DNA of 39,719 nt from an uncultured Dehalococcoidia bacterium (GCA_964443385.1 CAYUCO010000031.1:1-39719); one strand, 5' to 3'. Numbered from the stretch's first letter, positions 4,775-26,722 are shown. Numbers and translations: made by a program. Notes: generated by a model not told the origin, from the sequence alone.

Positions 4775-5979
4775 TGATTAATCCGAAGATACAAGACGAT
4801 TCACTATCCATATATATTCACATACCTTTTTGCCAAACCAAATGTCCATATTGCGATTTCAACACTTATTCCGGCATAGAATCTCTTATTCCAGATTACG
4901 TAAAGGCAATAAATGCAGAAATACACTATTGGGGAGATTCACTAAATAATTTAAGTGTTAAAACTATATTCTTTGGTGGAGGTACTCCATCCTATCTACC
5001 AGAAGGTCATTTGGAATCTATACTCAACCAGGCATATAAGTTTTTCCAAATAGATGGCACTCCAGAGATTACAATAGAGTGTAATCCAAATGACATAGAC
5101 GCCACGAAACTATCATATCTGAGAAAAATAGGGATAAATCGTCTAAGCTTTGGAGTCCAAAGTTTAGACGATAATCTATTGACTATATTAGGCAGAAGGC
5201 ATTCCTCAGAAGAGGCTTTAATAGCAGTTTCCGAGGCACGAGAGACTGGATTCAAAAATATAAGCCTAGATTTCATGTACGGGCTACCTTGCCAAACCTT
5301 GTCACAATGGGAAGACACACTCAATCAAGCTATAGAGATAAACCCGGATCATTTATCTCTATATTGTCTTACTCTTGAACCAGGCACGCCTATGAAGCAG
5401 AGCGTTGAATCAGGCAACACACCATCACCAGACCAAGATCTAGCAGCAGATATGTACACAATGGCAAACAAAATCCTGGAAGATACAATTTACGACCAAT
5501 ACGAGATTTCAAATTGGTCTAAGCCCGGTTTAAAAAGTATCCATAATTTAACTTATTGGAGAAACCAACAATACATAGGAATGGGGCCAGGAGGTCACTC
5601 ATATTTACATAAAACAAGATTCAACAATATTAACTCCCCCAGACAATACATAAAAAGATTGAACAACGTAGACCCGAATAAGAATTATAATAAACATCTC
5701 CCCTCTGAAACAATTAACACTATGCCTACAGTGGAGAATATCGAATATATAGAATCCAAATTAGAGATGGCGGAAACCATAATGCTAGGACTCAGATTGT
5801 CAGAAGGAATCAGTGAGGAATCTTTCAATCAACGTTTCGGAATATCTATACATGATGTTTTTAAAGACTCTATTAATGAAGTTATAGATTTAGGTTTGAT
5901 GATAAACAAAAACGGCACATTGAAATTAACAGACAAAGGTAATCTGTTTTCGAATGAAGTATTCTTGAAATTTTTCTAG
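4771..5979 (+). CDS. hemW: Radical SAM heme chaperone HemW
   Basis: YIHIPFCQTKCPYCDFN (CxxxCxxC), FFGGGTPS, YEISNW, HNLTYW; ATGA overlap with the ychF stop. Confidence 0.92.
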   Translation: MMINPKIQDDSLSIYIHIPFCQTKCPYCDFNTYSGIESLIPDYVKAINAEIHYWGDSLNNLSVKTIFFGGGTPSYLPEGHLESILNQAYKFFQIDGTPEITIECNPNDIDATKLSYLRKIGINRLSFGVQSLDDNLLTILGRRHSSEEALIAVSEARETGFKNISLDFMYGLPCQTLSQWEDTLNQAIEINPDHLSLYCLTLEPGTPMKQSVESGNTPSPDQDLAADMYTMANKILEDTIYDQYEISNWSKPGLKSIHNLTYWRNQQYIGMGPGGHSYLHKTRFNNINSPRQYIKRLNNVDPNKNYNKHLPSETINTMPTVENIEYIESKLEMAETIMLGLRLSEGISEESFNQRFGISIHDVFKDSINEVIDLGLMINKNGTLKLTDKGNLFSNEVFLKFF

Positions 5980-22190: not shown

Positions 22191-23195
22191 TCACTCAGCG
22201 GGAAGATTACCAGTATTCGCAATTAAAGCAGTAGCCTCTAGGGTTTTGATCATACCAGTAGCATCTGCAATACCTTTTCCAGCAATATCAAATGCAGTGC
22301 CATGATCCACGGATGTTCTAGTAAATGGAAAACCCAGATTTATACTGATGCTACCTTCAAAATCTTTAACTTTTATAGGTATGTGACCTTGATCATGATA
22401 CAGTACAACCACCACGTCATAATTGTCATTTATGGCCTGCGGAAATACTGAGTCCGCTGGTATAGGCCCGGTCACATTTATGCCCAGTGCTAATGCATCA
22501 TTAACGGCTGGTACAATTTCCTCTATTTCTTCCCTACCTATTAAACCACCATCACCACCATGTGGATTGAGTGCAGCCACTGCAATACGGGGATCTGAAA
22601 AACCCCATTCCTTGAAACTATTATATGTGAGAACTATTTTGGCTAAAACATTTTCCCTTTTTACAAATTCAACTGCTTTTGCAAGGGATCTGTGAGTTGT
22701 AAGATGTACAACTCTTAAGTTACCAGCTGTCAACATTGTTGCAACTTCTTTAGCCCCACTAAGTTTTTGCAGCAGCTCCATATGACCTATGTCGTTGTAT
22801 CCTGCCAATTGTGCAGCTTCTTTATGTATTGGAGCGGTAGCGATAGCATCTATTTCTCTATCTAGAGCCATTCGCCCTGCCTCCAAAATCCATTCGACAC
22901 TTGCCCGACCACAATCAGCCGAAATTTTTCCATGTTCAACATTTTCTGGATTCAGGTTACCCATATCAAAAACGGATATGCGGTTACTCCTTGAGTCTTG
23001 TGCGGAAGAAACTTCCGTGAACTCTAGATCACATCCTAAATCTTTAGCTGTCTTGGATAACAAATGGAGGTTTCCAATTATTAATGGGTGGAAAGAATCA
23101 GTTAGCCAACGTTCATTTAATGCCTTTACTATAACCTCTGGCCCTATTCCTGCCGGATCTCCCATTGTTATGCCTATTACAGGTAAATTATCCAT
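22191..23195 (-). CDS. pdxA: 4-hydroxythreonine-4-phosphate dehydrogenase family (PdxA or PdxA2)
   Basis: ITMGDPAGIGPE, TAPIHKEA, LNPHGGD, YHDQGHIP, RTSVDHGTAFDIAGKG. Confidence 0.92.
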   Translation of the reverse strand: MDNLPVIGITMGDPAGIGPEVIVKALNERWLTDSFHPLIIGNLHLLSKTAKDLGCDLEFTEVSSAQDSRSNRISVFDMGNLNPENVEHGKISADCGRASVEWILEAGRMALDREIDAIATAPIHKEAAQLAGYNDIGHMELLQKLSGAKEVATMLTAGNLRVVHLTTHRSLAKAVEFVKRENVLAKIVLTYNSFKEWGFSDPRIAVAALNPHGGDGGLIGREEIEEIVPAVNDALALGINVTGPIPADSVFPQAINDNYDVVVVLYHDQGHIPIKVKDFEGSISINLGFPFTRTSVDHGTAFDIAGKGIADATGMIKTLEATALIANTGNLPAE

Positions 23196-23244
23196 TTAAC
23201 GACTCCATCTAGCCATTATAATAAAAAAATGTGTTACAATGCTA

Positions 23245-23415
23245 GGCGGCCCCAAAAAAGAGGCCGCCAGATTTGCACGCTCCCTCTAGCAAGAGCGCGG
23301 ATTAGGTTTATCCATAGACGCCAGGCGTCTATCCCGTATCACACCGATCTCACACGTATCAACGAGATCGGTGTGTTCATCACAAATTGATCCCCGTATC
23401 AATAGCTCGCTGTGA
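23245..23415 (-). ncRNA. Candidate structured RNA/repeat element of five stem-loops downstream of nrdJ
   Basis: Inverted repeats at 23245-23268, 23276-23299, 23314-23332, 23340-23375 and 23380-23415; three copies of CGTATCA; the stem mismatches are G-U pairs only on the minus strand. Confidence 0.45.
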
Positions 23416-23416
23416 C

Positions 23417-25891
23417 TTATCCACAACGAGAATACCCACAAGATGGACACATTTCACAGCCTTCTTGATAAACCAAGAAACCGTCACAGTCAGGACATGC
23501 TGACTTGCCAATTACTCCATTGCCATTAGTGTCGGATTTAAGTGGTAAACCTGGTTGTAAGGCATATGTAACAAAGTTGTTATCCTCATTATTGCTACCA
23601 GTATGTTTTTCCAAAACTAATGCCACGGCGTCTGGTCCTGAACGAACCAATTTTCCGTCATCCCACTGAGGGCAACACGTTATACCTCGAAGTTGTTCAA
23701 CCAACTCACTTGGTTCTATACCAGAACGTAAAGCCAAAGAAACCAGCCGTGATATGGCTTCATGTTGAGCAGAATCACAACCTCCGGCTTTCCCTAAATT
23801 GGAAAAGATTTCAAAAGGTTGACCTTCCCTAGAGTTTATAGTGATGTACATATTGCCGTGACCAGTCCTGACTTTTTCTGTAATCCCACTCACTTGAGAA
23901 GGTCTTGGAGCTGGTTTGTTTAATTGACTATCATGAATAGCATTATGCAAGTCATTGGCATCAATGGACACAGAATCTGCAGATTCTGTTTTTGCCGAAC
24001 CAGATGTTAAAACTTCAAGATTTCTACTCCCAGATCTATAAACAGTTATACCTTTGCATCCTAATTCCCAAGCCAACATATAGGCAGTTCTTACATCTTT
24101 TCTAGTAGCTGAATTGGGGAAATTTATAGTCTTAGATATAGCAGCATCAACGCTCTCTTGGAAAACAGCTTGCATCCTAACATGATATTCGGGTGATATA
24201 TCTCCAGCTGTAACAAAAATATCTTTAACAGAGCTTGGAACATCATCCCTATCTTGTATGGATCCACCATCAGCAAGGTATTCCATCAATTCGTCACTAT
24301 AAAACCCCTGTTCTCTTGCCATACGCTCAAAATTAGAGTCTATGTAGAGTAAACTTTCCCCTTCCAATATGTTGTGCTTGTGATAGCAGAGAGAAAAAAG
24401 TGGTTCTATGCCACTTGAGCAGCCAGCTATCATGGATATAGTACCCGTTGGTGCTACTGTAAGCCTACATGCATTACGCATAGGCCGTCCTTGTTTTTCA
24501 TATATGCTACCTTCGTATCCAGGGAACACACCCCGCTCTTCAGCTAAATCCTCAGATGTCGCATCTGCATGTTCCTTTACAAACCTCATGATTTCGCGGC
24601 CTAAGTCCAATCCTTCTTGAGAGTTATAGGCCACGTCCATCATCACCAACATATCAGCGAATCCCATCACACCAAGTCCGGTTTTGCGCGTAGTTTTCGT
24701 CATTTCTTCTATAGCCGGCACTGAGTATCTGTTTGCATCTATAACGTTGTCTAAGAACCTGGTTGTGATACTGGTCACCTCTGCCAAACGATCCCAATCT
24801 ACCTTGGATTCGCCTTCATCGAATAGAACAAATTTTGCGAGGTTGATTGAACCTAAATTACAAGACTCATAGGCAAGCAGAGGCTGTTCACCACACGGGT
24901 TAGTAGCTATCATTTCCCCTATATGTGGCGTCGGATTATCCTGGTTAACACGGTCCAGGAAAATTGTTCCTGGTTCTCCATTAAGCCAAGCCCCTTCTAT
25001 AATATTATCGAATATTTTTCCTGCATTCAGAGTCCCCAAAACTTCCCCGTTATGAGGATCCTTAAGTTCGTAATCCTCACCCTTGCTTACAGCTTGCATA
25101 AATAATTCACTGGCACCCACTGATACATTAAAATTGTGTATCTGCCCTTCTTGTGTTTTGCAAGTAATAAATTCCTCTATATCAGGGTGATGAACGTCCA
25201 TAACAGCCATATTCGCACCATCCCGTTTACCACCTTGAGTAACCAAAGTAGACACTGAAGACAAGTGTTTTAACACAGCTATCGGACCACATGCTTTACC
25301 ATGTGTTGTAGCTATAGGAGAGCCTTTTGGTCTTATTTTCGACAATGCAAACCCGGTTCCTCCACCGAATTTTTGAACCAGAGCGGCCTCTTTAGCGGTT
25401 TCCATTATACCTTCCATGCTGTCTTCTAATCCCATCACAAAACAGGCGGAAAGTGTTCCTGCACCTGTGCCCGCGTTCATAAGAGTAGGGGAATTTGGTA
25501 CGTACTCCAAACTAACCATGACGCTATAATATTTATCTTCCCAATAACTCACATCTGCTTCAGGGTTGTATAGTAGTTCTGTTTCAGCAATAGCTCTGGC
25601 TACTCTTCTGGATATATCACTCCAAGAATTCTCCACTGCATTGCCTTTACTATCTTTCATAAAATATCGTTTTTTCAATACGACCATCGCATTATCCGAT
25701 ATCCCAGTATCTACTATGTTGTCACCCGTCGATTCAGCAGTAGATCTAGATGCATCGAGTGATGCCGCTATTTTTTTTGCCACATTTGGGTCAGTTATAC
25801 CTGCTGCATTCAATGCAGTTAGCACATCGTTTAAATTTTTATCGCCCCTTTGAGAATCTCTGCCGTCTGTTTTTCCCCTAGTGATTGTCAT
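23417..25891 (-). CDS. nrdJ: Class II (adenosylcobalamin-dependent) ribonucleotide reductase
   Basis: [42 protein letters not shown]; C-terminal TSCPD-like domain and CPDC...[10 protein letters not shown] tail; no ATP cone and no beta-subunit gene nearby. Confidence 0.94.
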
Positions 25892-25953: not shown

Positions 25954-26535
25954 CTATTTTTTTTCATCTCCAATACTTATGTTTACACCCAAACCAGCCC
26001 TAGGTTTTCTCAACCGTTTTTTGGTTGAGAAAACAGTCTCATCTATAAGAGGCAGTTGAGACGATGATTTATCTTCATCTGAGGAATGATAGGCTTTCTC
26101 CAATGCCTCTACCGCTTCCTTGAAACTCTCTACGTCTGCAAAATCTCTGTACACACTAGCAAACCTAATATATGCAACAGGATCCATAGTTCGTAGATGT
26201 TCAATAACCATTTCACCAATAGATACACTGGCGATTTCAGCTTTACCCGTGTCCTGCAATTGAATTTCTATGTCATGAACCAGTTTATCAATGGCTCCTG
26301 TAGGCAAAGGCCGTTTCACACAAGCCTTTTGAATGCTAGACATAAGTTTTTCTCTGTTGTATTCTTCTCGCCTGTTATCGCGTTTGGCCACCATAAGCGC
26401 ACTAGTTTGCACTCTTTCGTATGTCGTGAATCTAAGACCACATCTTATACATTCTCTTCTTCGTCTAACACCATCTGTGGCATCTCTTGAGTCAATAACC
26501 TTAGACTCACTATTATTACAATAAGGACAATGCAT
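25954..26535 (-). CDS. nrdR: Transcriptional repressor NrdR
   Basis: MHCPYC..KVIDSR..RRRRECIRCGLRFTTYE, ATP cone, VAYIRFASVYRDF. Confidence 0.97.
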   Translation of the reverse strand: MHCPYCNNSESKVIDSRDATDGVRRRRECIRCGLRFTTYERVQTSALMVAKRDNRREEYNREKLMSSIQKACVKRPLPTGAIDKLVHDIEIQLQDTGKAEIASVSIGEMVIEHLRTMDPVAYIRFASVYRDFADVESFKEAVEALEKAYHSSDEDKSSSQLPLIDETVFSTKKRLRKPRAGLGVNISIGDEKK

Positions 26536-26677: not shown

Positions 26678-26722
26678 TTAAACGCAATGTATTCTATTAA
26701 TATTAATACTGATTAAATCCAG

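Follow-up and report, generated by a model that had tools for sequence, protein, structure and literature searches.

Why is the spacer between a ribonucleotide reductase gene and a gene of vitamin B6 synthesis almost filled with inverted repeats, and do these act as DNA or as RNA? The question is raised by the intergenic region (IGR) between nrdJ and pdxA in a 39,719-nt contig of an uncultured Dehalococcoidia bacterium (genome G000: a 1.25-Mb assembly of 142 contigs, 89.5% complete, 40.5% G+C), the whole of which is called the window below. An earlier note, made from the sequence alone, had described here five hairpins with phased TGATACG heptamers directly after nrdJ and had proposed a novel non-coding RNA or a protein-binding array. 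The present analysis showed that positions 23229-23381 encode a structured RNA of about 152 nt, specific to one family and present in one copy, with the tandem hairpins A, B, B', C and D. The conserved unit consists of A-B-B'-C-D (23229-23381) together with the promoter block of pdxA, and includes neither the first hairpin of the earlier note nor the phased heptamers. The parts of the element are listed below, with the evidence for each in brackets.

23229..23381, minus strand: whole conserved structured element, 153 nt, limits of the covariance model (R1 match of 124.1 bits, E 4.5e-36, the sole match in G000)
23340..23375, minus strand: hairpin A, base CACACCG..CGGUGUG, inner stem and loop variable (repeats, fold, covariation)
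23314..23332, minus strand: hairpin B, (U)AGACGC-loop-GCGUCU(A) (repeats, fold, covariation)
23299..23313, minus strand: hairpin B', small, GGAU..AUCC (minimum-energy fold; not in the earlier note)
23277..23298, minus strand: hairpin C, GCGCUC..GAGCGU (fold, covariation)
23245..23268, minus strand: hairpin D, terminator-type, 9-bp stem, GGCGGCCUC-UUUUUU-GGGGCCGCC (repeats, fold, covariation)

Structure and conservation of the element

Each of the inverted repeats and all three heptamers reported earlier were found where they had been placed, including the perfect 12-bp inverted repeat (23340-23351/23364-23375), the 9-bp palindrome (23314-23322/23324-23332), the GGCGGCC/GGCCGCC arms (23245-23251/23262-23268), and the CGCGCTCTT/GGGAGCGTG stem and ATTGAT-ACGGGG-ATCAAT hairpin. 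The region is also richer in G+C, as had been claimed (0.51 at 23250-23399 vs 0.39-0.46 in the flanks and 0.405 genome-wide). The entire IGR folds at -84.0 kcal/mol (z -4.9) and the conserved core 23229-23381 at -69.5 kcal/mol (z -6.0), and in both cases none of 200 shuffles folded as well. A coding explanation, based on two open reading frames (ORFs) of 53 and 54 amino acids (aa) that overlap the element, was excluded by 1-nt insertions or deletions among congeners in hairpin A and in the loop of D.

Within the genus, the region was compared with that of the congener species G001 and G002, the aligned flanks amounting to about 3.2 kb. In nrdJ and pdxA, third codon positions were 73-82% identical and first and second positions 97-98%; the core at 23245-23376 reached about 95% identity, and the 49 nt before pdxA 96-98%. 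By way of a BLAST match, the nrdJ-pdxA spacer of a GC-rich genus was found to have the same architecture, and the stems of hairpins A-C are kept in sequence in genomes ranging from 40% to 65% G+C, with loops that vary.

Covariation was examined in two alignments. In the model-free MAFFT alignment A2, which comprises 16 loci from the second BLAST round with lengths of 151-156 nt, RNAalifold recovered hairpins A, B, C and D, and with B' added 97.3% of the 589 cells were paired and 9 of the 37 pairs showed compensatory changes. The observed value was reached by none of 500 shuffles on four of the five measures and by 219 of 500 on the remaining one ('further pair types'), and sliding the partners by 1-3 columns reduced pairing to 30-50%. 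The second alignment, A3, holds 26 sequences aligned by the covariance model and thus leans towards the structure; here 94.7% of 943 cells were paired, compensatory changes were present in 22 of the 37 pairs, and no shuffle among 500 reached the observed value on any of the five measures. Conservation and covariation in relatives, which the earlier note had suggested looking for, are therefore both present.

The pair columns contain 71 G-U cells (in 16 columns) vs 4 A-C cells (in 3 columns), and therefore the fold is to be read on the sense strand of nrdJ and pdxA. On this strand 94.7% of cells are paired, compared with 87.6% on the opposite strand, and its minimum energy is better by 10-15 kcal/mol in AT-rich genera and neutral in GC-rich genera. 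Both the G-U excess and the covariation agree with the earlier suggestion of RNA-level selection on the minus strand.

The individual hairpins differ in how strongly they are maintained across A3. Nearly all cells are paired in hairpin D (99.1% over the 26 sequences, with 5 of 9 pairs compensatory) and in hairpin C (98.9%, 5 of 7), the latter having a nearly invariant closing G-U pair that is followed by a conserved GUGCA. Hairpin A shows compensatory changes in 7 of its 10 model pairs, such as CACACCG/CGGUGUG to CGCGCCG/CGGCGCG. Four of the 7 pairs of hairpin B are compensatory, and in two lineages internal A-U pairs of this hairpin have become G-U, which would be a mismatch on the opposite strand. 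Hairpin B' is the weakest helix (73% of cells paired) and reads GGAU/AUCC in genus g1 vs CGAU/AUCG in the other genera. A GCA/UGU helix closing D was proposed by RNAalifold and is also found in the minimum free energy fold, with three of its four pairs holding in 24-25 of the 26 sequences; its level was not above that of shuffles, 91-106 of 500 of which reached it. Another closing helix, in which UAAUA ahead of A would pair with UAUUG behind D, was inspected by eye in the alignment and rejected because it breaks in genera g6 and g4. Upstream of the element in genome G020 (L030 / L148), a partial tandem duplication was observed, in which an additional copy of hairpins A and B and a stray 3' arm of C (GGGAGCGTGCA) run straight into GTAATAC and hairpin A.

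Two features of the earlier description fall outside this picture:

23377..23416, minus strand: first hairpin of the earlier note, outside the conserved element (z -1.0, neutral-level identity)
23335-23341 (A-B linker), 23355-23361 (loop of A) and 23395-23401, minus strand: TGATACG heptamers (CGTATCA on the plus strand)

Four of the five hairpins proposed earlier belong to the conserved element, in which B' had been overlooked, and the first one (23377-23416) is not conserved. In this genome, 28 of 200 shuffles fold as well as this hairpin (z -1.0), no fold was obtained for the corresponding stretches of the two congeners (z +0.8 and +1.3), and identity within the genus is 70-75% here, the neutral level seen at third codon positions. 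The heptamers at 23335 and 23355 are kept within the genus only, the one at 23395 reads TGATTCG in both congeners, and other genera have kept none of the three. TGATACG is also not enriched, with 5 occurrences in the window vs 3.4 expected and 89 in the genome. The idea that the heptamers are protein-binding motifs or a helically phased DNA array is not supported by these results: they are restricted to the genus, not all of its species have retained the copy at 23395, and the hairpin in which this copy lies is not conserved.

Distribution and genomic setting

Of 29 genomes from one Dehalococcoidia family, 25 were found with the covariance model R1 to contain the element, with one copy per genome. 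The exception is G041, in which two syntenic nrdJ-small ORF-element-pdxA loci (L156 and L162) are located on two contigs and differ in their protein identities, which could reflect a true duplication or the presence of another strain in the bin (5% contamination). The family genomes without a match are G008 (62% complete), G009 (55%), G010 (86%) and G011 (96%). The pdxA contig of G010 is cut at the gene. G011 (L167:2490-2580, minus strand) shows a clean deletion that has removed the element along with the small ORF on one side and, on the other, the ATTGTAcCA block that precedes pdxA elsewhere; about 70 nt are left between nrdJ and pdxA, and TATAAT, the untranslated region (UTR) and pdxA are retained. 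A pattern scan of metagenomes gave 48 matches, 7 of which were true elements, with two new sequences and the same synteny wherever the flanks could be read.

The genome sets outside the family were samples, and absence holds for the genomes searched. Among 146 other genomes of the order, R1 gave nothing beyond weak full-length matches (at most 29 bits) or matches to hairpin D alone, and neither pdxA nor nrdJ was found near the 8 weak full-length loci that were checked. A second model, R2, gave a single 26.9-bit match in 150 other genomes of the class, which is an ordinary terminator hairpin. No match was obtained in 80 pdxA loci of other taxa, and in 10 Dehalococcoidia loci searched with filters off, 8 of which have nrdJ upstream of pdxA, the best score was 9.7 bits on the wrong strand. 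At one locus from Dehalococcoidia outside the family (L061:1380-1500), ATCGAT..CCACGGAGCG is common to the 5' region of pdxA and the B'-C part of genus g6, and this 5' region has a strong fold (128 nt, -54 kcal/mol). The region was rejected as a homologue, as it has no covariance-model support and a lone 10-mer is near chance given the number of comparisons.

No known RNA family appeared to account for the element. A search of the whole window against Rfam 15 at gathering thresholds returned no match, and at E<=10 the region 23100-23520 gave just two chance-level psbA 3'UTR matches, both inside nrdJ, so that the Rfam check proposed earlier assigns the element to no known family. 6S RNA was rejected because the covariation supports five local hairpins and not a rod-like fold with a central bubble. 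RF00013 had no match in any of five family genomes (G000, G002, G007, G022 and G019), so that 6S RNA went undetected there, and this model gave a match in only 5 of 14 control genomes. Signal recognition particle (SRP) RNA was also rejected, since RF00169 matches elsewhere in 4 of the 5 family genomes; it had no match in G000 (89.5% complete).

On the minus strand of the window, the gene order is nrdR-nrdJ, IGR, pdxA-proC-yggT, and then hisZ and hisG. The features of the immediate setting are as follows:

25954-26535, minus strand: nrdR, upstream of nrdJ
23417..25891, minus strand: nrdJ, B12-dependent ribonucleotide reductase (NF006417 at 1016.9 bits, over its cut-off)
23196-23416, minus strand: nrdJ-pdxA intergenic region, 221 nt, between the two genes
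23232..23240, minus strand: block ATTGTAACA (ATTGTAcCA in relatives), candidate pdxA -35 (nearly invariant in 25 of 26 loci)
23215..23220, minus strand: TATAAT, likely pdxA -10 box (exact in 24 of 26 loci)
23193..23214, minus strand: short 5' UTR with GGAG (23203-23206) and the pdxA start codon (23193-23195) (96-98% identity within the genus)
22191..23195, minus strand: pdxA, the constant downstream gene (TIGR00557 at 321.6 bits, over its cut-off)

The upstream side of the element is variable. In 14 of the 26 loci, a full, very basic 90-aa ORF ending in ..EPLMGY lies just before hairpin A, and in G021 about 210 extra nt are present between the two. Remnants of this ORF were detected in 2 loci and no trace in 10, which include all loci of this genus (the ORF was not found in G000) and most of g6; at loci lacking it, the element is preceded by nrdJ or, in G014, by a 1.5-kb insert. 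This insert between nrdJ and the element (L027 / L038) contains co-directional ORFs, one of them with a HELGH motif seen by eye. The 90-aa ORF (L143:1222-1494, plus strand) has no Pfam family, and its 39 relatives' clusters are all unnamed or hypothetical and labelled Chloroflexi or Dehalococcoidia by their sources; its product could be a partner of the RNA. A co-directional stop codon is found shortly upstream of hairpin A in the loci read, and inspection by eye revealed no conserved promoter before this hairpin. The tie to nrdJ drawn in the earlier note has to be replaced by one to the pdxA side, because the 90-aa ORF instead of nrdJ precedes the element in those 14 loci. The element is kept independently of the gene that precedes it and is never separated from the pdxA promoter block.

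On the downstream side, the ATTGTAcCA block comes within 5-7 nt of the element and pdxA follows in all 26 loci, and the combination of this block with TATAAT was unique per genome in three g6/g5 genomes searched. An exact TATAAT follows the block after a 17-nt spacer in 20 of 26 loci, after 18 nt in 1, and after 13 nt in 3, all three of this genus; the 2 loci without an exact TATAAT are those of genus g4. The 5' UTR between TATAAT and pdxA varies from 30 to 270 nt across loci, and RNAalifold gave no consensus on 17 sequences for a fold of this UTR that would sequester the Shine-Dalgarno sequence. The reverse complement of the block, TGnTACAAT, resembles an extended -10 box directed away from pdxA.

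As for the wider neighbourhood, the nearest named relatives of this pdxA belong to Dehalococcoidia bacterium assemblies (49-55% identity), and DNA of the region occurs in seawater and marine plankton metagenome runs, which points to a marine lineage of Dehalococcoidia. Overlapping AT-rich palindromes were observed in the spacer upstream of nrdR (window 26688-26721), which could be NrdR boxes. Two strong inverted repeats are also present elsewhere in the window, one at 5138-5172 (17-nt arms with 94% complementarity, 1 nt between) and one at 5331-5363 (perfect 12-nt arms, 9 nt between).

Possible roles of the element

The GGCCCCG..CGGGGCC core of hairpin D recurs after genes in other families of the order, in extended stems that are followed by T-runs, and this marks it as the usual intrinsic terminator of this clade. 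In genera g5 and g10, D itself is followed by UUUUCUAUU and UUUCAUAUU, which are U-rich by eye. Other Dehalococcoidia show, again by eye, nrdJ, a strong terminator hairpin, a TGnTATAAT-like box and pdxA in that order, and this layout supports D as a terminator and TATAAT as the -10 box of pdxA. Our preferred reading, held tentatively and with somewhat less than even confidence, is that the element is a cis-acting 3'-terminal or intercistronic RNA with which transcription from upstream comes to an end, right at the promoter of pdxA. It would be transcribed as the tail of the co-directional upstream gene, ancestrally the 90-aa ORF and here nrdJ, and termination would take place at hairpin D, only a few bases ahead of the pdxA -35/-10 block. 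In this way the element might stop read-through from the nrd unit, which would be controlled by NrdR, insulate the promoter of pdxA-proC-yggT, and leave a compact, nuclease-resistant 3' end. Hairpins A-C would probably form a recognition surface for a protein or another partner, because their sequence is conserved far beyond what a terminator needs.

Several observations weigh against this reading. A plain terminator or insulator does not account for the sequence conservation of A-C. The tail of D in this window is UAGCAUUGU, without a U-tract, and a terminator scan of 22900-23700 found no terminator-like site; across the window, such sites were not enriched over shuffles (15 vs 12.7 and 16 vs 12.4). 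The promoter assignment has its own difficulties in that the -35-like block lies 13 nt, not 17 nt, from TATAAT in this genus, and TTGTAC agrees with TTGACA at 3 of 6 positions. As G011 lacks the element and yet has pdxA, the element is dispensable in at least one lineage. In addition, a 172-nt contig from an RNA library covers 23194-23366 unbroken, with 7 differences and 1 gap, which suggest that it probably comes from a close relative of G000. It crosses D and the promoter-like block, so that some transcripts must pass D, provided that the contig represents RNA. This contig is the sole expression evidence, and it shows neither strand nor ends and may result from DNA carry-over; the contigs of RNA libraries X18-X20 otherwise gave scattered short pieces over nrdR, nrdJ and pdxA; relatives of at least 90% likeness were covered, and gaps between the pieces therefore carry no weight.

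Several other explanations were considered. Instead of acting in cis, a fragment of about 150 nt spanning A-D might be released from the upstream mRNA as a 3'-UTR-derived small RNA (sRNA) that pairs with another RNA or binds a protein. Such an origin would fit the position at the 3' end of a coding unit with a terminator-type hairpin last, as well as the single, strongly conserved copy, in which even the unpaired GUGCA and GAU are kept; moreover, the element has outlasted both replacement and loss of the upstream gene, and hence is of value regardless of that gene. We nevertheless regard a trans-acting sRNA as unlikely, because neither a promoter of its own nor a discrete transcript was seen (contigs cannot show ends), the conserved unpaired runs of just 3-6 nt are too short for a clear seed, and action in trans does not need the adjacency to the pdxA promoter that was found in 26 of 26 loci. 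It is also conceivable that the element is a conditional attenuator or riboswitch-like leader, in which A-C sense a ligand (e.g., a B6 vitamer) or a protein and D decides on read-through into pdxA-proC-yggT. The order of sensor-like hairpins, terminator hairpin, variable spacer and co-oriented biosynthetic gene resembles such a leader, the linkage to pdxA is constant and the upstream gene variable, and the RNA-library contig bridges D and the promoter block, although this is weak evidence. When folds are cut before the 3' arm of D, the CCC of its 5' arm pairs with GGG in the A-B linker in several genera, and this predicted helix, enclosing B-B'-C, might serve as an anti-terminator. A review reports that no pyridoxal-phosphate riboswitch has been found (PMC9971707). 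However, the invariant TATAAT between D and pdxA indicates that pdxA probably has its own promoter, no conserved promoter was seen by eye upstream of A, and the fold lacks a multi-helix junction with conserved unpaired nucleotides, as it is the stems that are conserved and the loops that vary. The linker GGG is absent in genera g3 and g4 and the alternative helix is beyond the reach of covariation, the element occurs once per genome with none at other B6 genes, and G011 lives without it; a leader of this kind is thus decidedly improbable. The more specific proposal that A-C sense a B6 compound, or a B6-responsive protein, and thereby set how far the nrd unit is read past D into pdxA-proC-yggT is very doubtful.

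Explanations on the other strand or at the level of DNA have even less in their favour. The TGnTACAAT motif might drive a plus-strand antisense transcript from D into the end of the upstream gene; it is kept in 25 of 26 loci (motif by eye), including those of this genus, where the TATAAT spacing is broken, and locus L160 of g4, where no exact TATAAT is present. Such a transcript is very improbable, since the pairing signal lies on the other strand (G-U 71 vs A-C 4; 94.7% vs 87.6% paired), the sense strand folds better by 10-15 kcal/mol in AT-rich genera, and no evident terminator for such an RNA exists. If a regulator of pdxA or nrdJ bound to palindromic operators or to phased heptamer sites, this could explain why the arms are conserved and the spacers variable, with a promoter directly downstream, but the four palindromes are unlike one another, spacer lengths vary (in the loops of A, C and D by as much as tens of bases), departures from symmetry are nearly all G-T on one strand, and the heptamers are not conserved, so that this view is scarcely credible. 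What might point to a dispersed repeat of the repetitive extragenic palindromic (REP) or miniature inverted-repeat transposable element (MITE) type, or a remnant of one, is TTGATACGGGG, which forms the loop region of the first hairpin (window 23391-23401) and is identical to half of the REP-like hairpin CCCGTACTTGATACGGG of genus g5. The latter occurs 36-47 times per g5 genome, where its copies make up the extra length of the 5' UTR (e.g., L040:1700-1860; genomes G006, G019 and G013), and 6 times in G007; it has no copy in G000. For further copies of the element in G000, BLAST gave the self match only and 11-mers gave scattered single words at chance level; together with the covariance model, this settles the earlier BLASTN question in favour of a single copy that is not REP/MITE-like, and the element is single and syntenic in 25 genomes. 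A repeat origin is therefore refuted for the core and has a negligible probability as an explanation of the element, and the first hairpin alone could be such a relic. Compared with all of these, termination and insulation in cis at the pdxA promoter remains the reading that we prefer.

Significance and relation to known systems

To our knowledge, Dehalococcoidia are abundant in the ocean and the subsurface and mostly uncultured, and almost no regulatory RNAs have been described from them. The element is a clean candidate RNA family with good covariation and a fixed position, in which the end of an nrd unit is set against the promoter of a B6 gene, and controls already exist in the form of natural variants, in which the upstream ORF is missing, either side carries an insertion or, in one case, the element is cleanly deleted. 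If hairpins A-C do bind a B6 vitamer, they would fill a gap among riboswitch ligands that is recognized in the review cited above (PMC9971707). If real, such a B6 sensor, limited to a single Dehalococcoidia family, would be the first one made of RNA to be linked with the synthesis of pyridoxal phosphate. If the element is merely a terminator with stabilizing hairpins, it would still be a useful annotation marker for the family.

With the intrinsic terminators of Dehalococcoidia, the element shares the GGCCCCG..CGGGGCC core, which is common to hairpin D, and the position of D after a co-directional stop codon. It differs from them in having four further conserved, covarying hairpins before D, and, unlike the element, ordinary terminators do not retain their sequence from one genus to another. 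Among 3'-UTR-derived sRNAs, CpxQ and SroC of enterobacteria share the terminator of their parent mRNA. The element resembles them in its position, being located at the 3' end of a coding unit with the terminator hairpin last, and in being conserved above neighbouring synonymous sites, whereas it comes from a different phylum and strictly adjoins the next promoter. Among attenuation systems, the PyrR attenuators of the Bacillus pyr operon are intercistronic and use a terminator as expression platform. Both these and riboswitches are similar to the element in combining a structured covarying domain, a terminator hairpin and a biosynthetic gene, in an arrangement that is intercistronic and co-directional; the element differs in lacking a junction of conserved unpaired bases and in carrying TATAAT downstream of the terminator, ahead of the gene.

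No description of the element was found in the accessible portions of the literature on pdxA RNA motifs, pyridoxal riboswitches and structured RNAs of Dehalococcoidia, and the main text of a survey of 224 motifs (Weinberg et al. 2017, PMC5737381) does not mention pdxA, nrdJ, Chloroflexi or pyridoxal. The element is thus a new RNA motif of a familiar kind, with a narrow distribution. In its intergenic location, its covariation and its restriction to a narrow lineage, it resembles the motifs of that survey.

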